64,000 bases of DNA from a virus, in the IMG/VR virus record IMGVR_UViG_3300036781_000230, positions 1-64,000 of that record; one strand, 5' to 3'. Within the stretch, counting starts at the first letter, position 1. Each line of letters opens with the position of its first letter. The notes under the pieces were generated by a model that did not search any database, had not been told where the DNA came from, and was given only the letters and a program-made list of their open reading frames with translations. The position numbers were made by a program, and so were the translations under genes. Positions 3,622 to 34,891 of the stretch are shown here, piece by piece.

Positions 3622-3734
3622 TTCATCCTTCAAATGAGTTGCTAGCATACCTTTCTAGAGGGTTAACTCGAGTGCCGGCCGTTTGAAGCGTTGAGCTGAG
3701 GTAGAGCGTTTCACCTAGCCTACCTCAGATTTTA
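3619..3734 (+). ncRNA. Intergenic structured element (nested stem) followed by a terminator-like hairpin
   Basis: agttca/tgagct, cttcaaatg/cgtttgaag and accttt/agggt pairings; ctgaggtag...ctacctcag + tttt. Confidence 0.4.
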
Positions 3735-3759
3735 ATAGTCAATCCAATGGAGAAATAGC

Positions 3760-4041: not shown

Positions 4042-4054
4042 GGGAGGAGAGACT

Positions 4055-4501: not shown

Positions 4502-4504
4502 ATT

Positions 4505-4822: not shown

Positions 4823-4824
4823 AA

Positions 4825-5121
4825 ATGGCTTTTACTGAGTTTTTTACTCCCTCTGGATACGCTACGCTAGTAGCTGGCGCTACGTCTGCTGGTGTAGCTC
4901 TTCCTGCTGCTGGATCTCCTACCTCAGCTCGAGTTACAAATGCTGGGCCAAATCCAGTAGCTGTTTTGATTGGTGCTTCTGGGGTTGAAGTCACTCCTTC
5001 AACCGGACTTATTTTGAATGCTGGAGAATCAGTGTATCTTGCTACTGGAGCTGAAATTGCTGCCATTTCTTTGGGTGGTGGACCAAGTGATAGCTCAGTA
5101 TTTATCTCAGTAGGCACATAA
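4825..5121 (+). CDS. Small beta-rich putative virion protein (paralog 2)
   Basis: GVALP..VTNAG..IGASGVEVT..G. Confidence 0.65.
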   Translation: MAFTEFFTPSGYATLVAGATSAGVALPAAGSPTSARVTNAGPNPVAVLIGASGVEVTPSTGLILNAGESVYLATGAEIAAISLGGGPSDSSVFISVGT

Positions 5122-5131
5122 GGAGAGTGTT

Positions 5132-6400: not shown

Positions 6401-6409
6401 GGAGCTAAA

Positions 6410-6742
6410 ATGGCACATAATTTTGGTGGTTTCTCAGCTTACGCTAATGACGAGGCTCCCATTGAGGAGATGTCGAATGACGGTGGGCTTCCTGGTTCTC
6501 CTTATTACGCTGGAGACGGCGGTGATGGTTCTGGTGTAATGAGACGTCATCATGTGGAAGGACTTCGTGATTTAGACCGTAAACCTGCAGAAGACTCAAT
6601 GTCTGTTCCTGAAGGAATGAACTCAGGAATTAGTGAAGATTCGCTCGGACCAAGTGGTAAGAAATTCACTGAGCATTTACACTCTCGTAAAGGTGATGGT
6701 AAGTTCGAACCATCATCGATGCGTGGAAAAGAAAAAGAGTAG
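6410..6742 (+). CDS. Hypothetical, probable internal head protein
   Basis: Low complexity; repeated AxD(S/E/G) motifs; GGAG RBS. Confidence 0.6.
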   Translation: MAHNFGGFSAYANDEAPIEEMSNDGGLPGSPYYAGDGGDGSGVMRRHHVEGLRDLDRKPAEDSMSVPEGMNSGISEDSLGPSGKKFTEHLHSRKGDGKFEPSSMRGKEKE

Positions 6743-6767
6743 TCAAATTCGCAATACTGAAAGGTAA

Positions 6768-7064
6768 ATGATGAAACGCCTTGCATTCGCTCTATTGCTT
6801 CTTACGGTAGTTCCTGCGGTAAAAGCCCAGAGTCCTACCCTGCCTCAACCAAACTCAACTCTGGCGAATGACCCTGTTTTTCGGCAGATGGTAACTGAAC
6901 GTGAACTCTTGTTTAAGAAACTTCAGGATATTACCGAGTTTCAACAGTTCATGCAGGTTGAACGAAGCATTGAGCAATACGTAGCTACTCATCCTCAGGC
7001 TCCTGATCCTAAGAATGCTACTCCGGTAAAGCCTGTTACCCACAAGCCTGCTTCGAAGAAGTAA
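6768..7064 (+). CDS. Protein with Sec-type signal peptide
   Basis: MMKRLAFALLLLTVVPAVKA|QS. Confidence 0.7.
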   Translation: MMKRLAFALLLLTVVPAVKAQSPTLPQPNSTLANDPVFRQMVTERELLFKKLQDITEFQQFMQVERSIEQYVATHPQAPDPKNATPVKPVTHKPASKK

Positions 7065-7085
7065 TTCTAAAAGAAAGGAGGTCTG

Positions 7086-8738: not shown

Positions 8739-9184
8739 AAAATTTATTTGCAAATGCTCTCGACGGTCTTTACTGGGCTAGTGACTCATTACCTACTAAG
8801 AAATTTCATGACTTAAATTTAGTTATAGAGACTCCTAAGTTTGGAATGAGGCAAGGTCCTGGATGGATGTCCAGCCCACCGGCCGACTACGGCTATATCC
8901 TGGACACTACAGGTGCTGACGGTGACGAAATGGACTGCTATCTAGGACCTAACCCAGAAAGTACAATAGTTTATGTGGTTGATCAAAATAGGATGGATAG
9001 TCCTGTGTTTGATGAACACAAATGTATGCTCGGTTATAATTCCATGGCAGAAGCTAAGAAAGATTACTATGATGGTCATACTCATGGAATTCAAATCTTT
9101 CGTAACATAACTGCTTTACCTTTAAGTGTTTTTAAAGCTTGGCTTAAACATGGAGATATCTCTAAGCCTATAATTCTACAGTAA
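8735..9184 (+). CDS. Inorganic pyrophosphatase-like domain protein
   Basis: DYGYI..T.GADGDEMDCYLG...FDEHKCMLGY. Confidence 0.8.
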   Translation: MKNLFANALDGLYWASDSLPTKKFHDLNLVIETPKFGMRQGPGWMSSPPADYGYILDTTGADGDEMDCYLGPNPESTIVYVVDQNRMDSPVFDEHKCMLGYNSMAEAKKDYYDGHTHGIQIFRNITALPLSVFKAWLKHGDISKPIILQ

Positions 9185-9204
9185 CAAGATTAAAAGAGAC
9201 TTAT

Positions 9205-9369
9205 ATGACTAACGATGAAATTTATCGATTAGCAAAGGCTGAAGACGTACGGTGTATAAAGCCTCTTATGAATTTAGTTACTCTAGCTGCTCTGGAGATT
9301 CTTAAATTAGAATCTAAAACTCCAGTTCCAGAGGGAGTGAAATTTGTCGACCTCTTTCCTCGTCCCTGA
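9205..9369 (+). CDS. Small hypothetical protein (54 aa, not in ORF track)
   Basis: MTNDEIYRLAKAEDV...; fills the gap. Confidence 0.45.
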   Translation: MTNDEIYRLAKAEDVRCIKPLMNLVTLAALEILKLESKTPVPEGVKFVDLFPRP

Positions 9370-10207
9370 TCGCATAGAATCTGCTTACAGATCAGCTATA
9401 TCAAAAGTAGTTATGTCTTGGATTCCTCCAAAGATAAAAGGCATAAGTCCTTCTTACTGGCTGAAAGAGTTATCTGATGTTAGTACTCGTAAAAGTATCA
9501 TTAATGCTAGTACTAATATAGCTGTAAACATGGTGAGTAGAGTCAACGTAGTAAATGTAAAGTCTTGGAGAGAAGCTGCTCTTAAGGCTCAGAGTAGTAG
9601 ATACATTTACGAACTTCTACAACAAGAGTTATCCGGTCCTGTCGGAGTACGAATTAGACAACTAGTACTAGAGAACGCTAAAGTACTAGGACAGATACCT
9701 ACTGACGTTTCTGATATTCTTGCTGAGGAAATAGCTAAAGCTCAGCAGCAAGGCACCAGGCCTGAGGCCATCGAAGCCCTTTTGAAACATCGCTTCACGG
9801 ACATTATGTCCTGGAAAATAGCTCAAATAGCTCGAACTCAGTCTGGATCAACCAGTACTGCTTTAACTAGAGCTAGAAGTGAAGAGCTTGGACTTCCATG
9901 TTTTATTTGGGATACGTCTGAAGATAGACGAGTAAGACACTCCCATAGAGTAATGGATGGCGTAGTAGTTTTTTGGAATGATTTGCCCTCTCCTGAATCT
10001 TTAGTAGGACAAAGAAGCTCTTTCGGTCGTTATGCTCCTGGGGACTGTACTAATTGCAGGTGCTATCCTCGTCCAGTATTAACTCTTGAAGACGTTTTTC
10101 AAAAGAAAAATAGTCTGATTAAAGTATATGCTGATGGTCAGATAATTAAAATGACTAGGATGAATTTTTCTAAGAAATCTGGAATTGAATCCAGAATGGC
10201 AGCTTAA
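9344..10207 (+). CDS. MuF / SPP1 gp7-like head morphogenesis protein
   Basis: IARTQ, WDTSEDRRVRHSH, PG..TNCRC. Confidence 0.9.
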   Translation: MSTSFLVPDRIESAYRSAISKVVMSWIPPKIKGISPSYWLKELSDVSTRKSIINASTNIAVNMVSRVNVVNVKSWREAALKAQSSRYIYELLQQELSGPVGVRIRQLVLENAKVLGQIPTDVSDILAEEIAKAQQQGTRPEAIEALLKHRFTDIMSWKIAQIARTQSGSTSTALTRARSEELGLPCFIWDTSEDRRVRHSHRVMDGVVVFWNDLPSPESLVGQRSSFGRYAPGDCTNCRCYPRPVLTLEDVFQKKNSLIKVYADGQIIKMTRMNFSKKSGIESRMAA

Positions 10208-10218
10208 GGAGAACTACT

Positions 10219-10632
10219 ATGAAGAATTTGGTTAAGATTTTTCTAGCTATTTTGCTCGGAACATCTACTGTTTTTGCTCAAGTTGCTGGGCCTGTTGCTG
10301 CTGTTCCTGGTACTCCTGGAGCTGCTGCTGTATATGGAACTCCAATCAATGGGACTCCAGTAATTATCCCTGGTACTGTTATTCCGACTAATGGAAAAAA
10401 TGTCCTCACAGGTACAGTCACAGCGACAACCGCAACTACAGCTCCTGCAACAATTACAGGAGTCACTACGAGTTCAGTATGTGTGTTTTCTGCTGCTAAT
10501 GCTATTGCTGCAGCCGCTATCATAGCCGATAACGCATTTTTAACGCCTACTGCTAATACTGTGACTCTTACCTTTAGTGCTGCTCCAGCGACTACCGGCG
10601 GAATCTTTAAGGTTCTCTGCACAGTTAACTAA
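10219..10632 (+). CDS. Signal-peptide-bearing putative head decoration/appendage protein
   Basis: MKNLVKIFLAILLGTSTVFA|QV; C-terminal domain resembles the C-terminus of the 1301-aa fibre. Confidence 0.7.
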   Translation: MKNLVKIFLAILLGTSTVFAQVAGPVAAVPGTPGAAAVYGTPINGTPVIIPGTVIPTNGKNVLTGTVTATTATTAPATITGVTTSSVCVFSAANAIAAAAIIADNAFLTPTANTVTLTFSAAPATTGGIFKVLCTVN

Positions 10633-10641
10633 GAGGTTAAT

Positions 10642-10842
10642 ATGTCGATAAATCCCGGAAGATCAGCTTTTCCATCAGACAACCAGAAGCCTTTTGAAGG
10701 TACTGAGAATTCTGATCCAGGTAATGGTGGTGGAAATAGCGGTGCTGTACTGAGTCCAGCTCCTGGTCTCGGGCTATCTGCTTATCAAGACCCTAGAGTT
10801 CCTGTAGAAGCACCACTACCAAATCGTCAAGGAGGAAGCTAG
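10642..10842 (+). CDS. Small hypothetical head-module protein
   Basis: GAGG RBS; G/P rich. Confidence 0.55.
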   Translation: MSINPGRSAFPSDNQKPFEGTENSDPGNGGGNSGAVLSPAPGLGLSAYQDPRVPVEAPLPNRQGGS

Positions 10843-10844
10843 CC

Positions 10845-11183
10845 ATGGCAAAAATCAATGGCGGATATAGCGCAGTTTCTTGGGGTCCTACTGTGGATTC
10901 AACTCCACATGATAATGGACCTATTCCAGAGATGAGTACTAGCATTCCAAGTTCTATTCCTGAGCTTGGAGCACTAGCTGATGCTGATCCGTATTCTGGT
11001 ATAGGAAACTACGGTAGTCCTGATAATCCTCCGGCTATGGATTCTGATTTTTCTAAGTTAGAACATAAACTGGAAAATAAACCAGGAGTTACTAACCCTG
11101 CTGGCCTCGCAGCAGAAATTGGAAGAAAAGAGCTTGGACAAGCTGAAATGACTCGTCGAAGCGAAGAGGGTCGAAAACACTAG
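10845..11183 (+). CDS. Hypothetical, probable internal head protein
   Basis: PAMDS motif followed by FSKLEHKL..KPGVTNPAGLAAEIGRK. Confidence 0.65.
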   Translation: MAKINGGYSAVSWGPTVDSTPHDNGPIPEMSTSIPSSIPELGALADADPYSGIGNYGSPDNPPAMDSDFSKLEHKLENKPGVTNPAGLAAEIGRKELGQAEMTRRSEEGRKH

Positions 11184-12583
11184 TGCCAAAATATCACTCA
11201 TTGATGCTTAGCCCCAACATCTCAAAAACTGTTGAGGGTTATCTGATATGCGAGAATGTTCCACTTTGTCGAAGTGGTTTTCAAGATTATCTAGGAAAAG
11301 AACTAGAAGATTTTGTAGGCTACGAAAAATCCTGGGAATTGAATCCAAATCAATTATATAGGGTATATCGACCTAAGGAAGAAGTTCTTCATCCAGACTT
11401 CATCGCCAGTCTCGAGGGAAAAACTGTCGTTGATGAGCATCCGGATGGAAACGTAGTTCATGTTGATAATGATCAAGAACTCAACTGTGGACACGTGGAA
11501 AAAGTTGGACCAGGTCCTACTATAGATGGAGAGGTTACTCTTAAGGGTGATCTCATCATTAAGAATCCTGATCTGATAGAAAAAGTTCGACCAGAAAGCG
11601 ATCCAGATAATGAATATGGAACCGCTGTTCGCGATGTAAGTTGCGGCTATGGTCTACACCTCAAACGTCTCGACGATGGGACGATTGTGATGCATCGGTT
11701 GCGTGGAAATCACGTAGCTGTAGTAGAAAAAGGCAGGGCTGGTCCGCGGTTTGCCATCAAGGATTCTGCTCCGCCCGAAATCAAAATAATCAAGGAGCCG
11801 ATTATGTCACTAAGGAAGACGATTATCGGGCGAGGAATCCAAGCACTCTTCGGTGATATCAGCGCAGCAGAAAAGGAAAGCCTCATGGCTGAACTCGATG
11901 CTTCTGGTACTACGAAAATTGCAACAGATGCTGAACCCAAGGAAATGCACCCTGCTCACGCTTGCCTAGATCGTTGCTTGTCGGCGATGAAGGCTGGAGA
12001 TTCTGCAGCTCTTGAAGAGCACAAAAAAGAACTCTTCAAGCACATCGGTCATCATGAGCCTGAACACATGGATGATTCTGATGTGGAAAAGCTCAAGGAT
12101 GAAGAGAAGGAAAAGAAGGAAGAGAAAAAGGCTGGTGATGAGGAACTTGAGCAGGAAGAGAAAACTCCTGCTGAGGAAAAAGAAGAGACTCACGCCACCG
12201 ACTCTGAAAAAGCCGAGAAAGAGATTAACGATCCTGGTGAATCTGTTCTTAAGGCCGCTAACGATTCTGTCCGCGATTACATTCGAAGCAGCCGTCCTGT
12301 GATTGCTGTCATTGCGAATAAGGACCAGAGCAAACGATCGAAGACAGAGCAGATCATGCTTGATAGTTATAATGGCGCTGTTAAGGGTCTTAACTCTCAG
12401 GTTGGTCGACGGTCTACTTATTCGGCTCTTTCTCGCACAAAGACGCCCGAAGGTATTCCTCCTCTGGCTACTGATTCTTCGGCAGTTACCAAGGCCCCTG
12501 AGACCTGCAACTGTTTTGACGGTGTTCCGTACAAAGTCGGTCTCAAGCGTCATGAAACCGCTCATCAGAAGGGAGCTAACTAA
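11183..12583 (+). CDS. Prohead protease-scaffold (DUF2213)
   Basis: GYLIC..VP..RSG.Q.Y, VYRP.EEV, VDEHP, VSCGY, NHVAVVEKGRAG; acidic scaffold tail. Confidence 0.9.
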   Translation: MPKYHSLMLSPNISKTVEGYLICENVPLCRSGFQDYLGKELEDFVGYEKSWELNPNQLYRVYRPKEEVLHPDFIASLEGKTVVDEHPDGNVVHVDNDQELNCGHVEKVGPGPTIDGEVTLKGDLIIKNPDLIEKVRPESDPDNEYGTAVRDVSCGYGLHLKRLDDGTIVMHRLRGNHVAVVEKGRAGPRFAIKDSAPPEIKIIKEPIMSLRKTIIGRGIQALFGDISAAEKESLMAELDASGTTKIATDAEPKEMHPAHACLDRCLSAMKAGDSAALEEHKKELFKHIGHHEPEHMDDSDVEKLKDEEKEKKEEKKAGDEELEQEEKTPAEEKEETHATDSEKAEKEINDPGESVLKAANDSVRDYIRSSRPVIAVIANKDQSKRSKTEQIMLDSYNGAVKGLNSQVGRRSTYSALSRTKTPEGIPPLATDSSAVTKAPETCNCFDGVPYKVGLKRHETAHQKGAN

Positions 12584-12588
12584 AAACT

Positions 12589-13149
12589 ATGCCAGCCTCA
12601 GTAATTCCTGTAAAAGGACTATACCTCGGCTTTGTCGGTAGTATCAGCAACGAAGGTTATTCTCTTCGCACTGCTCGGCAAGTCAAATCTTCGGACACGA
12701 ATCCTATCGCCTTTGGCGAAACGTTCGTTCTGAACGCAGATAACACTTACTCCAGCGTTAAGACCTTTATTGCTGGAAGTGGCACAGTTACAGCAGCTAC
12801 TCCGATGGGAATTGCTGCAAGCAACGTAAACATCAATCCTACCTACAATACTCAAGGTACGGATGGTGTAAATACTCCTGGCGGAGTTTATCTGCCTGGA
12901 ACTATTATGGATGGTCTTGTTCAGGGAACCATCAATGTTAGCTGCAACAATGGTACTCCTACGGCTGGCGGAAGCGTTTACGTTCGCACAGTTCTTAATG
13001 GAGCTATTCCAACTGGAGTTGTTGGCGGACTCGAAGCTCAGGCAGACGGCTCCAATAGCGTTCTCTACCCGAACTTTAAGTGGAAAACTGGTTTCCTCGA
13101 GACGGATCTTACGGCTCAGGTAACTATTCTCCAACGCACTATTGCCTAA
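12589..13149 (+). CDS. Capsid cement/decoration protein
   Basis: Between scaffold and MCP; G.INV...GTPTAGGSVYVR motif. Confidence 0.8.
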   Translation: MPASVIPVKGLYLGFVGSISNEGYSLRTARQVKSSDTNPIAFGETFVLNADNTYSSVKTFIAGSGTVTAATPMGIAASNVNINPTYNTQGTDGVNTPGGVYLPGTIMDGLVQGTINVSCNNGTPTAGGSVYVRTVLNGAIPTGVVGGLEAQADGSNSVLYPNFKWKTGFLETDLTAQVTILQRTIA

Positions 13150-13167
13150 TCGGCGGAAAGGTAAGAA

Positions 13168-14172
13168 ATGAATCCCAGAGAATATCAACAGAGCCTAAAC
13201 GCTCTGCGCAGTGGGAAGGTACTTTCCGATGCCGCAGCGGCAGCAACCGGTCAGACCTTCTTGATGGCGGAACTCGCCAAGCTCGATCCAGTGGTTCGTC
13301 TTCCACTGGAAAACTACACCTATCTTCGCGATATTCCTATCGATCGCGGCGGTGGATGGATCATGAATCATATCGCCCACAACGTTGATTTTCGTGGACC
13401 TGCTGATGACTCAGCTGGTTCTCAGACCAATGATTCGCGTGTGATCGAGTACAACGTCAACCAGGATACCTGGCCGGTATTCCCCTACCAAGTTCGCATC
13501 CGTATTCCCATCGTGGAATCCCTCCGGATGGCTCAGGTAGGACGTTCTCCTCAGGACTTGCTCGATAAAGGCGTTCGCGTCGACTACAGCAAGACCCTTG
13601 ATCGCCGTACATACGCAGGATTTGCTGGACAGTACGGGTTGGTTAACAATCCGGAACTGACACAGACATCCTTGCCTGCAACTGGAACCGGTAACACTAC
13701 GACATGGAGCACGAAGACTGCCACTCAGATTCTCGGCGACTTCAATTTCATGGCTGAGACCAACTGGCTTGCCAGCGGTTCGGCTCCTGGCGCTATGCCG
13801 GATCGTTTCCTTATTCCTCCGGCGCAGTATATTCAGATCACCCAGCCGATGGCGGTTGTTGGTGGACCTTCTGGTTACGCTTCCATTCAGGACTATGTCA
13901 AGAAGAACTACCTTGGCTCGGCCTTTGGAATTGAACCGGAAATCTACCCTCTGCCTGAATGGCTCGACGGTCAGGGTAGTGGCAGTACGCAGGAAATTAT
14001 CGCGTACAAGTATGACAAGGACTGCTTGAGCTTGGGTATTCCCCAGGAAATCACGCGGTTTGGTGCTCCTCCGTCGATCGTATCTGGCTGCTTCGAGTTC
14101 CTGTATCTTGCGAACATCGGTGTAGTCAAGATCAATCGGCCTACGACCGTAGGTCTCTTCTACGGCGCATAA
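13168..14172 (+). CDS. Major capsid protein (DUF2184 type)
   Basis: FLMAELAKLDP, YGLVNNP, PDRFLIPP; GC-shifted codons. Confidence 0.9.
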   Translation: MNPREYQQSLNALRSGKVLSDAAAAATGQTFLMAELAKLDPVVRLPLENYTYLRDIPIDRGGGWIMNHIAHNVDFRGPADDSAGSQTNDSRVIEYNVNQDTWPVFPYQVRIRIPIVESLRMAQVGRSPQDLLDKGVRVDYSKTLDRRTYAGFAGQYGLVNNPELTQTSLPATGTGNTTTWSTKTATQILGDFNFMAETNWLASGSAPGAMPDRFLIPPAQYIQITQPMAVVGGPSGYASIQDYVKKNYLGSAFGIEPEIYPLPEWLDGQGSGSTQEIIAYKYDKDCLSLGIPQEITRFGAPPSIVSGCFEFLYLANIGVVKINRPTTVGLFYGA

Positions 14173-24063: not shown

Positions 24064-24774
24064 ATGCTATCAATTCAAGAGAGACTGGGACTACATACAG
24101 AACCTATTGCTGGGGCTGCCTGGCAATGGGCTTGTATGTTACGCTGCGCAGTTCCTGGAATTGTAGAATCTTTCGATCCAGTTAAACAAACTTGTGTAGT
24201 TCAGCCAGCCATTCAGGAAATGGTTCTTTTACCGCCTCCACCAACTCAACAAGTCACTAATCCTGGAAATACTCAGAACATTCCCACATCAGTAACAATT
24301 GAACCTATTCAAGATGTTCCTATCATGATGATGAGAGTTCCTGGTTGGTCGATGACTTTTCCAATCACTAAAGGAACAGAGTGTCTTCTGATATTTTCTG
24401 ATATGTGTATCGACGGTTGGTGGCAGAACGGTGGAATCAACCCCCAGTATGATCGCCGTAGACACGATCTTTCCGACGCTTTTGCGTGGTTTGGCCCATG
24501 GTCTCAACCGAATGTCTTATCAAATTATTCTACCAGTTCTGTTCAAATAAGATCAGATGATCAGACTGTAGTTATAGACTTAGCTTCTAGCACTATTACA
24601 GTTACTGCTCCTAGTGTAGAAATTAAAGCTCAAGGCGGAACAGCTAAACCGGTTCTCACTAAAGATTTATATGACTGGGTGATCTCTACTTTATTGCCTG
24701 CTTTAGCTTCCCATAGCATTACAGTAACCCCTCCTCCAATTACTTCACTCACAACTATATTAGAGGCTGAGTAA
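24064..24774 (+). CDS. Baseplate central spike (Gp138 N-terminal-like)
   Basis: PGIVESFDP, VQPAI, DVP, ECLLIF.D.CID.WW..GG, R.HDLSD. Confidence 0.85.
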   Translation: MLSIQERLGLHTEPIAGAAWQWACMLRCAVPGIVESFDPVKQTCVVQPAIQEMVLLPPPPTQQVTNPGNTQNIPTSVTIEPIQDVPIMMMRVPGWSMTFPITKGTECLLIFSDMCIDGWWQNGGINPQYDRRRHDLSDAFAWFGPWSQPNVLSNYSTSSVQIRSDDQTVVIDLASSTITVTAPSVEIKAQGGTAKPVLTKDLYDWVISTLLPALASHSITVTPPPITSLTTILEAE

Positions 24775-25175
24775 TGGCAACTATAACTGTAAGAAAATTA
24801 GATCCAGTTACTTGGGAACCTCAATTTGGTAACGGTCAAGAGAACTTCATCTCGGATCTAGAGGCTGTAACTCAAATTATAGCTACTAGATTAAAATTAT
24901 TTCAGGGAGAATGGTTTCTTAATCTAGAAGACGGATTACCTCTGTTTCAATCTATCTTAGGTTCTTCGGGTAGTCAGAGAAATATCACAGTCATTACCAA
25001 CTTGATAGCAGCTAGAATTTTGGGAACTCCTTATGTTACGGCTATAGTTTCTATTACAGCTACCTATCAAAATAGAAAATTTGTGTTTAGTGCAACGGTG
25101 GCTACTCAGTTTGGAGTTGTAACAGTGAGCAATTCTCCTGGAACCTCTGCTATTCTGACGAGTCCATCCTCCTAG
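24774..25175 (+). CDS. Baseplate wedge / sheath initiator
   Basis: EAV.Q.I.TRL.LFQGEWFL...DG.P. Confidence 0.8.
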   Translation: MATITVRKLDPVTWEPQFGNGQENFISDLEAVTQIIATRLKLFQGEWFLNLEDGLPLFQSILGSSGSQRNITVITNLIAARILGTPYVTAIVSITATYQNRKFVFSATVATQFGVVTVSNSPGTSAILTSPSS

Positions 25176-25186: not shown

Positions 25187-26386
25187 ATGGCATATTTTCC
25201 TCCAGTAATTACGGCAGCAGGGCTCTCTATACCTACTTTCAATGATATTCAAGCTGTTATCCTGAGCGCCTTTCAGTCGATCTATGGATCGACTACTTAC
25301 CTCGGAAATGACTCTGCTGATTATCAATGGATTTCTGCTCTAGCTCTTAAGTTAAATGACAATATGGGTCTCTGTCAGTTGGCCTATAATGCTCGATCCC
25401 CACTTACTGCTATAGGTTCTGATTTAGATTCTATACTTAAGATTAATGGATTAACTAGACTTTCTTCTTCTAATTCATCAGTAACTCTGTTACTTACTGG
25501 TTTATCTGGAACTCCTATTTACAGCGCCATTATAGCTGACGTGAATGGTATTCTCTGGCAACTTCCTCCAACAGTAACTATCGGTCCTGGTGGAAGCGCT
25601 AGTGCTACTGCTATATGTCAGCAAGGTGGTCCGATTAGTGCTGCTCCAGATACTATCAAAACTCCAGTCGGTGGATTTACTGCTGGTTGGAACACAGTAA
25701 CTAACCCTTCGGCCGCTAACGTAGGAACTCCTGTAGAATCTGATTCTAATGCCAGAGCTCGTCAATCTGTTTCGGTAGCTCTACCATCTAGTACTAGACT
25801 TGCTGGAACCGTCGCTGAAGTCAAAGCAGTGGCTGGAGTTACTCTTACTAATATCTTAGAGAATCAAACTGGAGTTACTGATGCTTACGGTAACCTTGGT
25901 CACTCTATGACTGCTGTTGTAATGGGTGGAACTGATTTAGATGTCGCTACTGCTATCTTCAATAATAGAGGAATAGGATGTAACACTATTGGAGCTACAG
26001 CCGTATCTATGGTTGAAGTTTCTGTAACTGATCCCAATTCTGGAAATGTTATGGTTATTGGTTTTGTTAGACCTGTATCAGTTCCCATTTATGTCATGCT
26101 TGGAATTCACGGTCTAACATCTAATTATAATTCTGCTATGCAGACGAATATTCAGAATGCCGTAGCTAACTATCTCAATAGTTTGCAAATTGGAGAAGAA
26201 GTTACTCAATCTGCTTTATATGGAGTGGCTTTGTCTGCTATGCCTAATCTGCTTCAGCCTGATTTTTCCATTAGATCTCTTCAACTGGGAATTACTTCTT
26301 CCCCTACTGGAACTACAGATATTGATATGGATTTCTGGCAAGTTTCTTCTGGCTTATCAGCTAATGTTACTATCAATGCGGTGTAA
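25187..26386 (+). CDS. Baseplate J-like protein
   Basis: YNARSP.TA.G..LD, V.NP..A..G...ESD...R.RQ. Confidence 0.9.
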   Translation: MAYFPPVITAAGLSIPTFNDIQAVILSAFQSIYGSTTYLGNDSADYQWISALALKLNDNMGLCQLAYNARSPLTAIGSDLDSILKINGLTRLSSSNSSVTLLLTGLSGTPIYSAIIADVNGILWQLPPTVTIGPGGSASATAICQQGGPISAAPDTIKTPVGGFTAGWNTVTNPSAANVGTPVESDSNARARQSVSVALPSSTRLAGTVAEVKAVAGVTLTNILENQTGVTDAYGNLGHSMTAVVMGGTDLDVATAIFNNRGIGCNTIGATAVSMVEVSVTDPNSGNVMVIGFVRPVSVPIYVMLGIHGLTSNYNSAMQTNIQNAVANYLNSLQIGEEVTQSALYGVALSAMPNLLQPDFSIRSLQLGITSSPTGTTDIDMDFWQVSSGLSANVTINAV

Positions 26387-26389: not shown

Positions 26390-26977
26390 ATGCCTGGACA
26401 ACTTCCTATTCAATCACTTACTAATGGTTACTATCTAAACATATTAACCTCTGAATACAGAACAACCACCCAATTTAATCAGTGGTTTACTGTAGTTTTG
26501 AATATTGCTACTGATATTTCAAATTGTCTACAGTTTATTACGTCTGCTTTTGATTTAGATTTTGCTGTAGGAGTTCAACTAGATATTCTAGGTGTTTTAA
26601 TTGGAGTTAAAAGAACAGTTCCTTTCCAGCCTAATAACGGAATAAGTCCTGTTCTCGATGATGACACCTATAGAATACTCTTGAAAGCTACTATAGCTAA
26701 TAATCAATGGGATGGAACACAGGGAAGTCTGTATCCTATCTGGAAACAACTTTTCCCTGGTGGTCAAATTATTATCATAGATAATCAAAATATGACCGCA
26801 GACATCCTGATGACAGGGTCGTTCTCCTCTATTCTTCAAGACTTAATCACCAATGGAATGATTGTTCCAAGACCACAGGCTGTTCAATATAATTATGTCT
26901 TCGGTACGCTTCCATTCTTTGGATTCGGATTTAACAATCAGTTCATAGCTGGCTTTGGTACAGGCCATTGGGGGTAA
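26390..26977 (+). CDS. Baseplate wedge protein (DUF2612)
   Basis: FDLD.AVG.QLD.LG, LDDDTYR.LLKA.I..N.WDG, DNQNMT, VPRP. Confidence 0.85.
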   Translation: MPGQLPIQSLTNGYYLNILTSEYRTTTQFNQWFTVVLNIATDISNCLQFITSAFDLDFAVGVQLDILGVLIGVKRTVPFQPNNGISPVLDDDTYRILLKATIANNQWDGTQGSLYPIWKQLFPGGQIIIIDNQNMTADILMTGSFSSILQDLITNGMIVPRPQAVQYNYVFGTLPFFGFGFNNQFIAGFGTGHWG

Positions 26978-27559: not shown

Positions 27560-27570
27560 GGGAGATTTTC

Positions 27571-28149
27571 ATGCGTAATTTTTTTAAGATTAGTGTCGTT
27601 GTGTTGTTTTTAGTCTCAGTAGCCTGGGCTATCAACTATGCAAATCAGTATAACACTCATCTACTTAATTCACTAGTAGATAACACGCCAATTGGACAGA
27701 GTCAAGCAGCGGCCGGTACATTTACTACTCTTAATGGAAGTTCTTCTACTATTAGCGGAAATCAAAACGTAGGAAGTTTTCAGATAGGTGGAGGAGCCCC
27801 AAACGGTCAAGTTTTGATGGGTAATGGAAGTACTTACATTCCTCAAAATATAGTTATTCCTCCAGCTGGAAGTCAAGTAGTTAGCACAACTATTACCGGT
27901 TGTTCTTTCGGCGGTTATAGCAATCTTAATTCCTGTGCTGGTACATTCTTTTGGACGACTCCTTTTGGTGATACTAATTATGATATAACGGGATGCATAG
28001 CAAATAGTAATAATGCTGCTTCTGTTATTGTAGCTCAGACTGGAACAAAACAAACGTATGGATTTTCGTACGTAGCAACTTTGATTATGATTAATGGCGC
28101 TGGAGGAGGATGGGCTCCTCAAATTACGTGCTCAGCTTACCACCACTAA
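27571..28149 (+). CDS. Tail-fibre-like protein with Sec signal peptide
   Basis: MRNFFKISVVVLFLVSVAWA|; NGQVL.GNG shaft repeat; WTTPFGDTNY C-terminal domain; 4 Cys. Confidence 0.75.
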   Translation: MRNFFKISVVVLFLVSVAWAINYANQYNTHLLNSLVDNTPIGQSQAAAGTFTTLNGSSSTISGNQNVGSFQIGGGAPNGQVLMGNGSTYIPQNIVIPPAGSQVVSTTITGCSFGGYSNLNSCAGTFFWTTPFGDTNYDITGCIANSNNAASVIVAQTGTKQTYGFSYVATLIMINGAGGGWAPQITCSAYHH

Positions 28150-28172
28150 TAGTTAGAAACCAGGAGATTTAG

Positions 28173-31100
28173 ATGAGAAAGTTTTTGCTGTATGCGGCCC
28201 TAGTGTTTACTCTGGTTTCGACTGTTTCAGCTCAGTATGTCCCCACTCCTAACATTGGTTTAGAAATTCCAGCGAATGGTTCTAATAATTGGAACATTCC
28301 TCTTAACTATAATTTTAATAGATTAGATCAATTGCTTAGTGGGCAATTGTCTCTTCCTGGTCTTAGTGTTAGTGGAAATGTGACAGTAACTGGATCTGTT
28401 ACAGCTAATAGCTTTATCGGCGCGGGTGGTGCTGGTCTTGCTACGGCTTCCATAGCTTCTCAGTGGAGTCCTGTATACTATTCTGCTTCTCCTACTGGAA
28501 ATTCTTTTGCTGGAGTTTCTCCTTTTACTGGACTAGCAAAATATAGCGCTACCGGACCACCTTCTTCTGCTGTACTATCAGATATTAATTCTTTACTTCT
28601 AACTGGAAGTAATTGCTCTACCACAGGTACTGTTTATTCTCCAAAAAGTGGATCGTGTGTTGTTGCTGGTGGAGTAGCTGCTGGAAGTACGCAAGATGTT
28701 CAATTCAATACTAATGGGGCTTTTGCGGCTGACACGAATTTCTTTGGATACACTCTTGGGTCTCATACTCTTAGTACGACTAATCAAGTCAACAGCACTC
28801 TCTTTAGCTCAAAGAGCACAAACGACATACTGAATTCAGATATGTTCTTGACCAGCCCTACGAGTAATGACGGTGTACCGAATGCATTCGCTAGTTCGTA
28901 TTGCTCACCTGGACCTTGCTTAGTTACACGAAATACCAACAGCGCTGACAACTATGACGTCGGAACGGCGTTTCCTCCAAGTGGCGACACACTTGTAGAT
29001 CACCAACTTGGGCGCGAAACTTACATCATCCATAATCCTCCTGCCATTTCTGCTCCTCATACAAATAGCCCCTACGATTGCAACGGATTCAATGCAGCAA
29101 CCTGCCACACAGTTTTGTTTGATACTGTTGACCCTACTGCCACTGTACAACCTACTAGTCGTCCGGGGGTGGAAAGTGCTTCAGCAGCATTCAATATGTG
29201 GAGTTGGAACTACGGAAATTGTCCAAACTGTGGAAATACGCAATGGGGACCAGCAGGGAGTATGGAAAGTTTGTATGCTGGTTTTAGCTCACAAGGTATT
29301 ACTCAAGTTCGAACATCTGATGTAGTCAAGCATGGAACAGGAGATTGGAGTTCTTTCTATGCCTATTTCTTCAGTGATGGCGGGCAACCCGACTACTCTG
29401 GAGAAGGCGGAAATAATGAAACGATTCAAGGTGGTGAAACCAGTGATTACGGACACTTTATCGTAGGATCTGGGGGAACTGCTAATACCATATCTCTTCC
29501 AATTGTTTACAATTCTGCATTTACTCCGTCCAGTATAAATCGCAATGCTACTAGTGGTGGCGGTTATATGATAGATATTACTCAAGGATCAATTACTGGA
29601 CATGTAACTGGAGTAGATCAGACTCTTCCTCAGAACGCTTATGTTGGAATACTTCCTATAGATACTTCAGTTACCCCTTCAACAGCATATGGAAACACAA
29701 CTTGTGAAATGCCTGTTCCTGTATCCACCAATCCAAATCTGTACGGTTCAATTACCTGTACAATTAGTAACATTGGAGGAAGTAATTCAGCAGGTTTCAC
29801 TACGGGGTTTGCGGAACTTTCAGGAGACTTTCCAGAGGGAGTAACTATTACATCTGCTCCAACTCCAGCATCAGGAGGTAGCCAGACGGTAACTTTTACC
29901 TACGTACATCCACATGGTTCTACTCAAACGATGCTGTGGCAGGGAAGTAATGTTATTGGAGATTTTTTAAGTTGGGATTACTACACTGGACTTAACTCTA
30001 TGAAATCTCCATTTCATGTGTATGGAGCTACTGACTCAACCCATATTGTAGCTCAACCTCGTTTTGGTGGAGTAGTTATAAATCCTTATAATGCTGGAGT
30101 AGTTCAAACTGTTTCTAGTTTGACTCAATCTGGAACTACTGTAACAGCGCTGATCTATCCATCTACTTCAATATCTGCGATGCAACCATTTAATAAACAA
30201 TCAGCAGTTATATCTGGTTGTTCTGACGCAGGATTTAATCAAACCGTAACTAATGTCACGCTTCATCCGGCTGCTTCTCCTAATCAGACAGTTACATGGA
30301 CTTCTCCGGGAACTGGTTCTACTTGCGCTACTGCTTCTATAACTCTAGTTCCGGCAACATTCGCTTTTCATTTGTATCCAGGCGCTGAGCAGTTTGGTCC
30401 TGCGATTGCAGCACCGGCTAATCTTCCTCTCCTCATAAATAATGTTAATTGGACTCCAGGCGATCTCATCGAAATGCCTCACCACTTCGACTGGTCTGGA
30501 ACTGATTTACGCACAACTTGGATTGTGAATAATGCGACAGCTGTATTTGGAGGAAACAGTAATGGCGCTGGACACACCTTTCAAGGTCCAGGAATCGGGG
30601 GTCAATTCAAACCATTCAATGTAGGTATCGCTAATCCATGCTCCTACTACGTAGGATGCGGGGGAAATATTCCTCCGGTTTACATGGTGATATTTGGAAC
30701 TGGTGGTAATCCTTCTAATGGCGGTGTCAACGGAGGAGGAATCAGATTAGGAGAAGCTCCTATAAACGGTGGAGCTGGTCTAAGTATTGGTTGTGCCGAT
30801 GCTGCTCTCGGAGGATGCTCAAGCATTGATCCAATTATCTTTCTCCAGACTAATGAAAACGCTCAAGGAATCTTTGAGTTTTTGCCTGGTCTTTCTTCAT
30901 GGGCACTCCCTAGTTTAACTGTAGGTCTTCCATCACCAAATTCACGGCCAGGATTAGGAACTATCACAGCAGGTAGTTATCACATTGCTGGATTCGAAGA
31001 TAATACTTTAGGACTTAATTTCTACGGATACGGTAGCACAGTACTCAACACTCTAGGATTCTGTAACCATAATTCCTTCACTTTTGCAATTTCGGTTGGA

Positions 31101-32078
31101 ACCTGCACGAATGGGTCAAGGTTATCTACGTCGGTGGGAGAACTGGATGCTGGAGTCCTGAGGGCTGATGCTTCGGCTAGTTTGGCGAGTATTTCTGTTG
31201 GATTAGTTCCCCCAGTTAAGGCTCCTACTCTGGTATATACTGGAACAACTGGAACTACAGAAAGAAATTACGGAGTTTCTGTAGTTAGTCCTCTTGGAGT
31301 AGAAGGTGCTCTCGGAGAATCGACATATGTGGAGAATACCGCATCAACTCTAGATGCTAGCGATTATGTAACGATCACATGCCCCACATCATTACAGCCA
31401 AACTATCCAACCGGAACCACCTACAATGTGTGGTCTAGTACAGGCACTCCCTATCCCCTTGGGAATTGTCCAGTCGGCGGATCGATTGTTGATAATGGGA
31501 CACACAGTGCAGGAACTTATCCAACTCAATTTGCCAACATGACGGCTTTGGCCCTACAGTGGCAAGTAGAACTCGGAGGAGCTCTAGGATTCTGGAACTC
31601 TAATACAACTGGTAAAGCTCTAGACGTCTATATCAATAGACTTAGCGCTAACACTATAGGAATTGGTTCGACCCCAGGAACGAGTCATAACGGCAGTTTT
31701 GAAGCAGCTACTATTACTGCTGATACTGGTTTTGCTGGAAGCGGATCGGCTCTTACTAATATTAATGCTGTAAAAGTTAATGGGGGTTCTCTTCCTACTT
31801 CCACTCCATATCTTGCCACTAACGGCACTGGTCAAGTAATTGCTTCAACCAATATTCCCGTTAGATATGTTGGGACAATAACTTCAGTTGCTGGAACTAG
31901 TGATACCCTATCTGTCACTGGTTTAACAACCTCGAATCATTGTTCTATACAATTTACAAACTCAGGATCAGCTGCTCTTACTGGGGATTTTGTTTCAGTA
32001 GGTACCGGCTCATTAACGTGGAATCATTCACTATCTGTAGGCGGTGAGACGGTGGATGCTTTCTGCAATATTCCTTAA
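28173..32078 (+). CDS. 1301-aa tail fibre / receptor-binding protein with Sec signal peptide
   Basis: MRKFLLYAALVFTLVSTVSA|Q followed by TPNIGLEIP..W..LN.NF.RLD; G/S/T rich; 22 Cys by hand count. Confidence 0.8.
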   Translation: MRKFLLYAALVFTLVSTVSAQYVPTPNIGLEIPANGSNNWNIPLNYNFNRLDQLLSGQLSLPGLSVSGNVTVTGSVTANSFIGAGGAGLATASIASQWSPVYYSASPTGNSFAGVSPFTGLAKYSATGPPSSAVLSDINSLLLTGSNCSTTGTVYSPKSGSCVVAGGVAAGSTQDVQFNTNGAFAADTNFFGYTLGSHTLSTTNQVNSTLFSSKSTNDILNSDMFLTSPTSNDGVPNAFASSYCSPGPCLVTRNTNSADNYDVGTAFPPSGDTLVDHQLGRETYIIHNPPAISAPHTNSPYDCNGFNAATCHTVLFDTVDPTATVQPTSRPGVESASAAFNMWSWNYGNCPNCGNTQWGPAGSMESLYAGFSSQGITQVRTSDVVKHGTGDWSSFYAYFFSDGGQPDYSGEGGNNETIQGGETSDYGHFIVGSGGTANTISLPIVYNSAFTPSSINRNATSGGGYMIDITQGSITGHVTGVDQTLPQNAYVGILPIDTSVTPSTAYGNTTCEMPVPVSTNPNLYGSITCTISNIGGSNSAGFTTGFAELSGDFPEGVTITSAPTPASGGSQTVTFTYVHPHGSTQTMLWQGSNVIGDFLSWDYYTGLNSMKSPFHVYGATDSTHIVAQPRFGGVVINPYNAGVVQTVSSLTQSGTTVTALIYPSTSISAMQPFNKQSAVISGCSDAGFNQTVTNVTLHPAASPNQTVTWTSPGTGSTCATASITLVPATFAFHLYPGAEQFGPAIAAPANLPLLINNVNWTPGDLIEMPHHFDWSGTDLRTTWIVNNATAVFGGNSNGAGHTFQGPGIGGQFKPFNVGIANPCSYYVGCGGNIPPVYMVIFGTGGNPSNGGVNGGGIRLGEAPINGGAGLSIGCADAALGGCSSIDPIIFLQTNENAQGIFEFLPGLSSWALPSLTVGLPSPNSRPGLGTITAGSYHIAGFEDNTLGLNFYGYGSTVLNTLGFCNHNSFTFAISVGTCTNGSRLSTSVGELDAGVLRADASASLASISVGLVPPVKAPTLVYTGTTGTTERNYGVSVVSPLGVEGALGESTYVENTASTLDASDYVTITCPTSLQPNYPTGTTYNVWSSTGTPYPLGNCPVGGSIVDNGTHSAGTYPTQFANMTALALQWQVELGGALGFWNSNTTGKALDVYINRLSANTIGIGSTPGTSHNGSFEAATITADTGFAGSGSALTNINAVKVNGGSLPTSTPYLATNGTGQVIASTNIPVRYVGTITSVAGTSDTLSVTGLTTSNHCSIQFTNSGSAALTGDFVSVGTGSLTWNHSLSVGGETVDAFCNIP

Positions 32079-32232: not shown

Positions 32233-32580
32233 ATGATCAGAAGCATTCAACGAAACGGCCTGCTTTATATTCGATGCATGCTTTTGCTAACTTTTTTGTA
32301 CATAGCTCTATCTGGTAATTATCCTCCGGCTCACGCTCAAGTTCCTACTCAGAGTTTTATACCGGTTATTAGTCAGGCTGATCCAGTTCAAAATGAGCAG
32401 ATTTTAGAGTTGAATCGACATCTAGATAATACAGATAAAATAGTAGCTCAGCAAGAAACTGAAATTTCTAGTGTTAGAAATGACTACAGCCGAGGATACG
32501 GCATGGTCCAGGGATTTGGATGGCTTCTCACTTTTTTAGTTACTGCTAGCATTACAATTCAGGTTAGAAAGAAGGCATAA
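32233..32580 (+). CDS. Lysis-region membrane protein (signal/TM, coiled coil, C-terminal TM)
   Basis: LLLTFLYIALS..PPAHA|Q; C-terminal hydrophobic stretch then RKKA. Confidence 0.6.
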   Translation: MIRSIQRNGLLYIRCMLLLTFLYIALSGNYPPAHAQVPTQSFIPVISQADPVQNEQILELNRHLDNTDKIVAQQETEISSVRNDYSRGYGMVQGFGWLLTFLVTASITIQVRKKA

Positions 32581-32876
32581 TGATTTCCGAAATTAGTTTC
32601 GGTATCATGAGTATTTTCTATCATCTTTGTGTTGTCATTTCCTGTGCTTCTTTAGTGGCTAACTTTCTCCCCAGCGCCAGACTACTTAATCACTATCCTA
32701 AAGTTAAAGCTATTTATCTTCTAATAGTTGACTGGATAGCTTTACTTGCTCTAAATTTTAGAGCCGATCTTCCCTCTTTGGATAAAGAAATTTTAGGATT
32801 TAAACGTAGATTCAGACACGCCTACAGAAACTGGAAACAAAGTAGACAGGATACTGTAGTTAGAAAAGGAATATAA
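32580..32876 (+). CDS. Holin-like membrane protein
   Basis: Two hydrophobic segments, basic C-terminus; precedes the endolysin. Confidence 0.5.
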   Translation: MISEISFGIMSIFYHLCVVISCASLVANFLPSARLLNHYPKVKAIYLLIVDWIALLALNFRADLPSLDKEILGFKRRFRHAYRNWKQSRQDTVVRKGI

Positions 32877-32878
32877 CT

Positions 32879-33424
32879 GTGATTGACCTAGACGCTGTAG
32901 TTCTATTTGTAATTAAACAAGAAGACTCAACTCTATCTGGAATAATTACGAATGATCCACTAGATAACGGTGGAACTACTAGATATGGGTTAACTCAGAA
33001 ATTTCACTCCGAACTAAAGCGGCAAGGATTTTTTGATAGAGGAGTTGTTCCTGCTGATCGTGCGCTGATAATGGCCCAACAGGCATATCAATCTCAATAT
33101 GCACAACCTCTAATGTTGACGTCATTTAACTCTCAAGCCATAGCTACCGCCATGCTTTCATTCGCTGTAGTTGAAGGTAATCACGTTGCTGTAAAATGTC
33201 TTCAGACTTCAGTAACTAAATGTGGAATACCCATAACTGTAGATGGACTATTAGGTCATGCTACAGTAGATGGAGCAAATACTATTGATCAGACTTCACT
33301 TCTTCAAGAGTGGATCAATCAAGAGAATACCTACTTTGAAACTATAGTAGAGCACAATTCGAGTCAGCAACGATTTTTAAAAGGCTGGGAAGCCCGGGCT
33401 GAAAAACTTAAAACACTTCTGTAG
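32879..33424 (+). CDS. Endolysin, GH108-like with peptidoglycan-binding domain
   Basis: QED..SG..NDPLDNGGTTRYGLT; VDG.LG..T; Q.RFLKGW..R. Confidence 0.85.
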   Translation: MIDLDAVVLFVIKQEDSTLSGIITNDPLDNGGTTRYGLTQKFHSELKRQGFFDRGVVPADRALIMAQQAYQSQYAQPLMLTSFNSQAIATAMLSFAVVEGNHVAVKCLQTSVTKCGIPITVDGLLGHATVDGANTIDQTSLLQEWINQENTYFETIVEHNSSQQRFLKGWEARAEKLKTLL

Positions 33425-33432
33425 GAGTCATT

Positions 33433-33744
33433 ATGCATTATACTGCTTTCCAAATTTCTCTGTTTATGGTTCTGATCATCTTTGCTATAATGATTATCAG
33501 AGGTAAGACCGATCTTCCCCAGTTCATCGGTGCAATCAATAGTGTCGGCTCTCAGCCTACAGCCATAACTGTAATGATGATTGGTTGTATAATGCTGGTC
33601 ATGTGTAAGATATACGGTTTGGATTCAACTATCGCTGGCGGTATTATCGGAGTAGCTTCTAATATGTTAACTAACATGTTTGTGAAGACCCATACCGATA
33701 ATGCTGGTAATAAGAGCCAGGATTCAGAAATCCCAAAAGTGTAA
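33433..33744 (+). CDS. Holin-like protein (up to 3 TM)
   Basis: Hydrophobic segments; adjacent to the endolysin. Confidence 0.55.
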   Translation: MHYTAFQISLFMVLIIFAIMIIRGKTDLPQFIGAINSVGSQPTAITVMMIGCIMLVMCKIYGLDSTIAGGIIGVASNMLTNMFVKTHTDNAGNKSQDSEIPKV

Positions 33745-33785
33745 ATCAACCTTTAACGCTTTATCAACCAGAGAAAGAGAGTATC

Positions 33786-34196
33786 ATGTCTAACCCAGTC
33801 ATTACATTCTTTGAAAAGATCGGTTCTAAGCTCGCCAGCATGTTCAAGAAGGCTCCATCCATAGAAGTACAGGTTTCTTCAGCCATTAACTACTGCGCTC
33901 CCTTTGTTGAAGAACTCGACACCTTGGTTGATCCCACATTGGCTCCTATCATCAACCCCATCATCGATAAGGTTAAAACTGGACTCGCTGCTCTTGCGGT
34001 GACTATTCAGCAAGCAAGTACCCCTACTGGTCAAACCAATCTTCAGAGTATTTTCTCTTCGCTGAAGAGCAATCTCTCTTCGTTGGAGTCTGCTGCTCAA
34101 GTTAAGAATCCTGAGAATGCAGCTAAATTCTCTCAGATTGTTAACTTGATTATCGGAGAAATTTCCGCAATCTCAACCTCTGTAATCAAGGCTTAG
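33786..34196 (+). CDS. Amphipathic helical protein in the lysis cassette
   Basis: ORF with GC-shifted codons. Confidence 0.6.
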   Translation: MSNPVITFFEKIGSKLASMFKKAPSIEVQVSSAINYCAPFVEELDTLVDPTLAPIINPIIDKVKTGLAALAVTIQQASTPTGQTNLQSIFSSLKSNLSSLESAAQVKNPENAAKFSQIVNLIIGEISAISTSVIKA

Positions 34197-34216
34197 TTTA
34201 CTAAAGGAGATATCTG

Positions 34217-34891
34217 GTGGCAAAGTTACTCACTATCGCAAAGGTCGTGGCTCTCATTGCCATCAGTTTCTTCTTTGTGGAAGCTGGTCTATTCTTTAAG
34301 AATGGTATTATTTCTCTAGACAATACTTTAGTCTCCATTAATACAGCAACTGATTCTATATCAAAAGATTCCATTAAGCTTGGACAGACTCTTGATATGA
34401 TCAACAATCCAGACCCTCGACTCGGAACTATTAAACTAGTGAACAAAGATCTGGTTAATTTAAAAGATACACTAGTTCTAATAAACATGAGCGCTAAGAC
34501 CTTCAGCGATACGTCAAGAACCCAAGCTCTATACGCTCAGAAGTGGGACGGTCAAATCACCGACACTCTAGGAAATGTGAATAAAATTGCAGTCACAGCT
34601 AATCAGAGTATATCAGATACTTCTTTAGCACTACAATCTTCTGTGGTAGCTATAAAGCCTGTTCTTCAACAGACGACTTCTACTTTAGTCGCCACTGAGA
34701 AACTTATAAGTAATCCTGAAGTTGTTGAAACTATTCACAATCTCAACACTAGTAGTAAGGCCTTATCTGGAATAACCACAGACACTGAGACTTGGTGGCA
34801 CAATACTCTCTATCCTAAGTGGCCAAGAAGAGTAATGAATGTCTTAACTAATCAGAGCATGACAGCAATTAAGTGGTTCACGGGGAATTAA
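34217..34891 (+). CDS. N-terminally anchored coiled-coil protein (spanin-like candidate)
   Basis: N-terminal TM then a long heptad-like region; last gene of the operon. Confidence 0.55.
   Translation: MAKLLTIAKVVALIAISFFFVEAGLFFKNGIISLDNTLVSINTATDSISKDSIKLGQTLDMINNPDPRLGTIKLVNKDLVNLKDTLVLINMSAKTFSDTSRTQALYAQKWDGQITDTLGNVNKIAVTANQSISDTSLALQSSVVAIKPVLQQTTSTLVATEKLISNPEVVETIHNLNTSSKALSGITTDTETWWHNTLYPKWPRRVMNVLTNQSMTAIKWFTGN

Follow-up and report, generated by a model that had tools for sequence, protein, structure and literature searches.

In the textbook view, tailed phages are assembled wholly in the cytoplasm, and to our knowledge this applies to all characterised ones. The long tail fibres of T4 are made separately and attached last to finished particles, in a spontaneous step that also takes place in vitro, with all of their components being cytoplasmic and devoid of a signal peptide. 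Here, we describe two genes, P0001 and P0002, which are located at the tail-fibre position of a soil myophage and whose products start with predicted Sec signal peptides. Both lie in the window, that is, the whole stretch of 64,000 nucleotides that was analysed (the first 64 kb of the 79-kb IMG/VR virus record IMGVR_UViG_3300036781_000230). Family comparisons confirmed that genes with a predicted export leader at the fibre position are a lineage-wide and statistically strong feature. Separate production and last-step attachment are what the proteins proposed here would share with the T4 fibres, whereas the cytoplasmic, leaderless components of the latter set the two systems apart.

Late phage proteins that use the host Sec pathway and signal peptidase are known from lysis, for example, the Lys44-type endolysins of fOg44 (as cited in PMC8878798). 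Like the signal-arrest-release (SAR) endolysins and spanins, these are late proteins travelling via host Sec; however, they are lysis enzymes and not virion parts, and the endolysin of the phage described here is leaderless. Outside the viruses, the MAT fibres of the bacterium Bdellovibrio bacteriovorus were found to be exported and functional trimers of a tail-fibre-like type, in which the signal peptide precedes a conserved domain (Caulton et al. 2024, PMC10769870), indicating that Sec-exported fibres can fold. The likeness comprises the signal peptide, the conserved N-terminal domain, a tail-fibre-like trimeric shaft and a mosaic tip, but the genes in question are cellular, belonging to a predatory bacterium that displays their products on its own surface with no virus particle involved, and neither a sequence nor a structure match was found between the MAT fibres and the N-terminal domain of P0002. 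In Porphyromonas gingivalis phages, genes of unknown function with a predicted signal peptidase I cleavage that exposes Gln were discussed with regard to a potential modification of the host outer membrane (Matrishin et al. 2023, PMC10367356); the Gln-exposing cleavage is alike, while the paper does not link these proteins to tail fibres. Finally, Cellulophaga phage phi18:3 (NC_021794; Pachyviridae) encodes gp085, gp086 and gp087 just upstream of its lysis cassette, with signal-peptidase-I-type leaders ending in FGYS↓Q, VSA↓Q and LNA↓Q (the arrow marks the cleavage site, here and below). The record annotates all three as structural/tail proteins “based on experimental MS/MS proteomics analysis” (MS/MS, tandem mass spectrometry), and we found no paper commenting on their leaders. 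In contrast to the phage described here, phi18:3 is a podovirus that infects a marine member of the Bacteroidota, and gp085–gp087 contain only 0–3 Cys and have no detectable similarity to P0002.

The two leaders (Table 1) were called by n/h/c-region rules together with conservation across homologues. P0001 starts with MRNFFK, followed by a hydrophobic h-region of 11 residues (ISVVVLFLVSV) and AWA↓I, and P0002 starts with MRK, followed by FLLYAALVFTLV (h-region of 12 residues) and STVSA↓Q. Both thus combine a positive n-region, an h-region within 7–15 residues and small residues at −3 and −1, as expected for Sec/signal peptidase I substrates, and neither of them carries a lipobox Cys at +1 or a twin-arginine motif. 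The so-called Q-rule, that is, Gln at +1, fits P0002 but not P0001. On re-reading the sequence, the open reading frames (ORFs), starts, ribosome binding sites and leaders were all found as described in the first-pass annotation, which had also pointed out that the long protein has no second Met for about 220 aa (the next one is residue 224) and that the short upstream fibre P0003 has no signal (its N-terminus is indeed free of any hydrophobic stretch). The hydrophobic N-terminus of P0001 is retained in P0008, P0009 and P0010, the last of which shares 43% identity. Leader-like N-termini are rare in the surroundings: in the 5–32 kb structural block, only 4 ORFs have one, two of them being small ORFs besides P0001 and P0002. 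No C-terminal domain of type IX secretion (TIGR04183, TIGR04131, Por_Secre_tail) was matched in NCBIfam/Pfam searches of P0002, P0001 and six homologues.

The leader is not a peculiarity of this phage. A HMMER search with residues 1–200 of P0002 retrieved 221 clusters (at 50% identity) at E<=1e-3, and the N-termini of the best 150 of them were read and scored. In about 130 of these 150, a leader is kept that drifts freely in sequence and ends in small-x-small↓Gln (with AxA↓Q being the commonest form) 1–7 residues ahead of a conserved domain, TPNIGLxIP..W..PLNxNF..LD..LSG; when motifs are counted strictly, small-x-small↓Q is present in 121 of 124 leader-bearing homologues. Retention in the face of such drift is beyond chance, and conservation of the signal peptide among homologues, which had been suggested as a check on the initial prediction, was hence borne out. 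Approximately 16 of the best 150 clusters are leaderless and begin with Met and 1–9 further residues before the same motif, so that cleavage of the leader would recreate nearly the same N-terminus. A Met within ten residues before the motif occurs in only 11 of 119 leader-bearing members, so that a conserved internal start from which a cytoplasmic isoform could arise is lacking. One family member, P0142, was considered as a natural fusion of stub and fibre and rejected: both an internal Met and the full leader are retained, and it is therefore best regarded as two genes read as one, the upstream partner being P0003-like. P0082 is a gene-calling fusion by the same reasoning, with an upstream partner that is GIY-YIG-like according to a reading of its N-terminal motif.

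The cysteines go along with the leader. As counted by hand in the first-pass annotation, P0002 contains 22 Cys, nearly all locally paired, and P0001 contains 4; we find the 22 to form 11 consecutive near pairs, including CSPGPC, CPNC and CSYYVGC, with 3–41 residues inside pairs and 39–158 between them. Of these Cys, 11 are also invariant across P0004, P0005 and P0006, and an alignment showed the 4 Cys of P0001 to be invariant in its family. Across the N-domain family, Cys content amounts to 1.62% in leader-bearing members (leader excluded) as compared to 0.43% in leaderless relatives (median 0) and 0.75% in the other structural proteins of this phage, and the count is even in 112 of the 127 leader-bearing members that have any Cys (binomial p = 1.6e-19). 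Such a pattern is, for these predicted proteins, the signature of disulfide-bonded extracytoplasmic proteins. Taken together, P0001 and P0002 are very probably Sec/signal peptidase I pre-proteins with disulfide-type cysteines, destined for export and oxidative folding.

What lies behind the cleavage site of P0002 resembled the attachment end of a fibre already at first reading, and this assignment held up. The first 60 residues of the mature protein were modelled by AlphaFold2 with high confidence (predicted local distance difference test, pLDDT, 86–94), although the model had no match in the PDB (Foldseek), BFVD or VIA-align wide, and a profile search against PDB sequences was empty as well. 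A scan of IMG/VR with this domain yielded 25 loci, whereas a scan of viral contigs with the whole P0002 as query gave no match. Nineteen of the loci (L002–L020) belong to related myophages, and in 18 of the 19 the order is gp25, gpJ, DUF2612, a P0003-like gene and then a leader-bearing gene (376–1563 aa), with 0–4 extra leader-bearing genes between the latter and the lysis cassette. Rows of up to four leader-bearing genes after the main one, mostly with Gln at +1, are seen in L013 (8327–15160), L008 (10001–16453) and L011 (10001–13337). The loci L021–L026 are podovirus-like; here, the N-terminal motif stands on leaderless proteins of 200–375 aa, and the C-termini of these proteins hit tail-fibre and tail-collar families of PHROG. 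Two more distant myophages of the lineage, L030 and L031 (gpJ 41–48% identical), encode a leaderless N-domain protein of 128–132 aa directly after the P0003-like gene (7256–7642 and 3806–4204, respectively). In all of these leaderless proteins, a homologous TPN..W..PLNxNF..LD domain is located at the extreme N-terminus; they differ from P0002 in lacking a signal peptide, in their low Cys content (0.43%) and, for L030 and L031, in a length of only about 130 aa. The motif following the predicted cleavage site is a tail-fibre N-terminal domain, given that leaderless copies of it are found on proteins that match PHROG tail fibres and, in L030 and L031, at the corresponding locus. The N-domain gene of L030 is followed, with a 20-nt overlap, by a separate leader-bearing gene, and the stand-alone domain of L030 and L031 may represent the unfused state of the module.

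While the N-terminal domain is conserved at 35–60% identity, the remainder of the proteins is mosaic. The C-termini of the family comprise GDSL esterase, beta-helix, pectate-lyase-like, K1-lyase_C, Phage_depo_C, Laminin_G_3 and CBM domains, as is typical of receptor-binding proteins and depolymerases. The AlphaFold2 model of the P0002 body (aa 220–1000, from a 4-row alignment) was unusable (pLDDT 25.6). In P0005 and P0006, a Cys-paired body of the P0002 type stands behind quite different N-terminal domains with leaders ending in A↓Q, and the C-terminus of P0006 is a K1-lyase_C domain. The C-terminal domain of P0002 is shared with a second leader-bearing protein of L019 (5001..6263; 39% identity over 79 aa by BLAST).

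The short fibre gene upstream gives a further reason to look for a host-recognising protein among the leader-bearing ones. Orthologues of P0003 have 281–391 aa, of which the first ~180 residues are conserved and followed by a fibre-repeat motif (..TPIG...P..G.F.T..) and a tip; the tip matches PHROG tail-fibre families, as judged from the C-terminus of one relative. Both here and in the near-identical locus L002, P0003 ends at 190 aa, ahead of motif and tip. Without the receptor-binding tip of its orthologues, P0003 leaves recognition of the host to another protein, and no other fibre candidate was seen in the genome. On these predictions, this phage is thus without a leaderless protein carrying a receptor-binding tip. 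Mature P0001, in turn, starts with a fibre-repeat-type motif, NTPIGQSQAAAGTFTTL, of the same kind as that of the P0003 orthologues. Smith–Waterman comparisons with the C-terminal halves of the short fibres of relatives gave weak to moderate similarity (z = 4.3 for P0001/L005 and 6.6 for P0010/L012), which neither hhalign nor Pfam confirmed. With regard to a gp53-like tip (PF21882), P0001 had no hit in Pfam and an hhalign probability of 1%, neither of them significant; the nearest named Atlas cluster (0.82) is a lead only. P0001 may correspond to the tip-bearing half of the short fibre of relatives, and one reading is that an ancestral short fibre was split, with its distal half now bearing a leader, which we regard as a lead and not as a result.

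These observations can be accommodated in a scheme in which the virion would be completed from two cellular compartments. Host Sec would translocate P0001 and P0002, and signal peptidase I would cut them after AWA and VSA, respectively; the new N-terminal Gln of P0002 could then be cyclised to pyroglutamate by the host. The 11 + 2 Cys pairs would be oxidised in the periplasm, where folding and presumably trimerisation would take place as well. Meanwhile, all other parts of the virion, among them the leaderless P0003 stub on the gpJ/DUF2612 baseplate, would be built in the cytoplasm. Fibres and particle would meet only upon opening of the inner membrane by the holin or upon burst of the cell, and docking would rely on the conserved N-terminal domain laid bare by cleavage. 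The leaderless endolysin implies, by textbook lysis, holin holes that would let folded proteins pass, in keeping with late docking. The element that would be new is the existence of two virion halves waiting in different compartments. We consider it close to an even call that P0001 and P0002 are indeed distal host-recognising fibres, made as Sec pre-proteins, that join the particle after membrane breach via the N-terminal domain exposed by cleavage. Tentatively, the scheme may be extended to the whole soil myophage lineage as a split-compartment assembly, with Sec export, disulfide locking, a pyroglutamate cap and attachment at holin opening; the leader-bearing phi18:3 proteins, which are of unrelated sequence, would then speak for a widespread and overlooked route. 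Of the proposal in the first-pass annotation, which had comprised export, oxidative folding and late docking, the conserved leaders, the cysteine pattern and the fibre N-terminal domain have gained support from the family comparisons, while the docking step stays at the strength just given.

Several points weigh against such late docking. No tailed phage is known to assemble in this way, and literature searches for Sec-routed tail fibres found no description. If attachment took place upon lysis only, it would need to be rapid or to cope with dilution. Furthermore, the short fibre of relatives is complete, leaderless and equipped with a tip, so that the exported proteins there need not be the receptor-binding ones. 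Structural operons also contain accessory leader-bearing genes (of four related complete genomes, only one has a homologue of 10219..10632), and a position in the late operon is therefore no proof of a virion role. The phi18:3 proteins provide an independent hint from measured data that leader-bearing proteins can reach particles, but they are unrelated in sequence, and mass spectrometry of particles may also catch co-purifying envelope material. As the main and a serious rival explanation, it is quite possible, if somewhat doubtful, that P0001 and P0002 are exported and never bound to the virion, acting instead as secreted or periplasmic fibre-like enzymes or binders, for example, depolymerases or esterases. 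Such proteins might attack the polysaccharide of the cell's own envelope and thereby stop superinfection or the sticking of progeny to debris, with the leaderless short fibre serving relatives as receptor-binding protein. The leader and cysteine evidence fits this explanation equally well, and so do the depolymerase- or esterase-like C-termini of the family, the complete leaderless fibre of relatives, the accessory leader-bearing genes elsewhere in structural operons and the Q-rule proteins of P. gingivalis phages, which were interpreted by the authors as host-modifying (PMC10367356). What it leaves unexplained is why a fibre N-terminal domain is conserved (35–60%) on otherwise mosaic proteins and why cleavage recreates nearly the N-terminus of a leaderless fibre; in addition, this phage and L002 would be left without any receptor-binding tip, and leader-bearing proteins of phi18:3 are annotated as found in the virion by MS/MS.

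Conventional assembly from a cytoplasmic protein that makes no use of Sec appears improbable. In this case, the N-terminal segment would be a buried anchor, a pro-peptide for a phage protease or a stretch ignored by a host whose Sec pathway is shut down. Textbook knowledge of characterised tailed phages, all of which assemble in the cytoplasm, speaks for it. There is also a precedent in the capsid-protein leaders of P. gingivalis phages, which the authors explained as prohead-protease substrates (PMC10367356). However, neither a buried helix nor a pro-peptide needs a positive n-region, free drift and a conserved small-x-small↓Gln, and the even-numbered, four-fold enriched Cys confined to leader-bearing members would have no explanation. 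Even less probable, to the point of being barely credible, is an uncleaved signal anchor that holds the fibres in the inner membrane facing the periplasm, from where they would be picked up by virions or act as exclusion proteins. Membrane-linked steps of phage assembly do exist, for example, with the portal initiator of T4 and filamentous-phage coat proteins, but the h-regions are short here (11–12 residues) and lead into a good cleavage site, a lipobox Cys at +1 is lacking and the conserved domain starts right behind the site, as if its end had to be free. The lack of a lipobox in P0001 and P0002 likewise disfavours the alternative raised in the first-pass annotation, a superinfection-exclusion surface protein, as far as the lipoprotein type is concerned: exclusion lipoproteins of the T5 Llp/Cor type are small and carry a lipobox Cys at +1, whereas P0002 alone measures 1301 aa.

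The leaders also bear on the question of the host. Besides nearly every member of the P0002 family, about 14 of the 17 further leader-bearing proteins that these phages encode have Gln at +1 (N-termini read by eye), which recalls the Q-rule of Bacteroidetes, with a mean of 71% Gln at +1, and of Ignavibacterium album with 77% (Bochtler et al. 2018, PMC5837995). A Shine–Dalgarno motif, however, precedes 57% of the genes of this phage as compared to a background of 10%, and GGAG, GAGG or AGGA is found before 55–76% of the genes in the phage group (loci L005–L017 and L032; background ~10%), whereas the value for the Bacteroidota phage Flavobacterium phage 11b is 5% and equals its own background. 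The Bacteroidota O-glycosylation sequon was not enriched either (4 observed versus 3.9 expected). Gln at +1 thus points to the Bacteroidota or, more broadly, the Fibrobacteres–Chlorobi–Bacteroidetes (FCB) group, while heavy Shine–Dalgarno use and the sequon result argue against classical Bacteroidota, and the host may be a soil diderm from an FCB-group lineage outside the latter. No relative turned up when GTDB genome contigs were scanned twice and metagenomes once, and no prophage or host is therefore named; the INPHARED phage collection contained no match to P0002, its N-terminal domain, P0003 or the DNA.

PHROG and Pfam matches identify the phage as a myophage with a late operon of ordinary layout, in the order terminase, portal, head morphogenesis, protease, capsid, sheath, tube, a tape-measure-like gene with an SLT domain, Dit-like, hub, gp25-like, gpJ-like, DUF2612, three genes at the tail-fibre position and the lysis cassette. 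The baseplate wedge genes define this tail-fibre position (Table 1). In the lysis region of relatives, a lipoprotein candidate for an o-spanin is present. The stretch is contained in a soil-metagenome DNA run, and no RNA run containing it was found. The record ends are homologous, with window positions 1–13235 matching record positions 66424–79071 (beyond the window) at ~87.5% nucleotide identity (blastn). Since the identity is only ~87.5%, the record looks like an assembly that passes from one strain into a relative and not like a terminal repeat; the unit genome amounts to ~65.85 kb, and the label of the record as “100% complete, 79 kb” is too large.

Further leaders occur elsewhere in the window. 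Two small head-module proteins without a family match have leaders with Gln at +1, namely, 6768–7064 (plus strand; VKA↓QS, 98 aa) and 10219–10632 (plus strand; VFA↓QV, 137 aa); the latter was tried as a core virion or head part and rejected, as its homologue stands at the same place in only one of the four related complete genomes mentioned above. In the early region, the proteins encoded by 1127–1504 and 2297–2743 (both minus strand) have twin-arginine-like starts (SRRRFLQLF and TRRGFFKQI, respectively), each with a hydrophobic stretch and with no Pfam match, which suggests export via the twin-arginine translocation (Tat) pathway; variants of both proteins are present in a second copy near the record end.

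Table 1. Predicted features around the tail-fibre position, in window coordinates (↓, cleavage site).
Feature	Coordinates	Strand	Basis or remark
Baseplate wedge gene, gp25-like	24774..25175	+	PHROG and Pfam matches
Baseplate wedge gene, gpJ-like	25187..26386	+	PHROG and Pfam matches
Baseplate wedge gene, DUF2612/gpI-like	26390..26977	+	PHROG and Pfam matches
P0003, leaderless proximal fibre stub, 190 aa	26987..27559	+	
Shine–Dalgarno GGGAG, 6 nt 5' of P0001 ATG	27560..27564	+	sequence
P0001, 192 aa	27571..28149	+	
Predicted signal peptide of P0001, aa 1–20, AWA at −3..−1	27571..27630	+	
Mature P0001, 172 aa: fibre-repeat motif (NTPIG..AAGTFTTL) and C-terminal domain with 4 invariant Cys	27631..28149	+	
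Shine–Dalgarno AGGAG, 6 nt 5' of P0002 ATG	28162..28166	+	sequence
P0002, 1301 aa	28173..32078	+	
Predicted signal peptide of P0002, aa 1–20, VSA↓Q	28173..28232	+	
Conserved tail-fibre N-terminal domain of P0002, mature aa 1–60 (TPNIGLEIP..NW..PLNYNFNRLD..LSG)	28233..28412	+	
Central Cys-paired body of P0002, ~aa 217–1000	28821..31172	+	38–77% identity to P0004, P0005, P0006
C-terminal ~80-aa domain of P0002 with Cys1257/Cys1298 pair	31833..32078	+	
Lysis cassette: small membrane proteins, endolysin, more membrane proteins	32233..34891	+	
Endolysin, leaderless, GH108 + PG_binding_3	32879..33424	+	within lysis cassette

A tail fibre with a secretory route, of which we found no published description, would be new. 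The 221 clusters of the family at 50% identity represent many testable sequences, and with phi18:3 as a cultured analogue the question is testable at the bench. If true, fibres could bear disulfides, pyroglutamate and perhaps other envelope-side modifications that are barred to cytoplasmic proteins, and the timing of lysis would govern fibre attachment. Receptor-binding proteins of such phages would require periplasmic expression for host-range or enzyme work, and a leader on a protein at the fibre position would be no ground for annotating it as non-structural.

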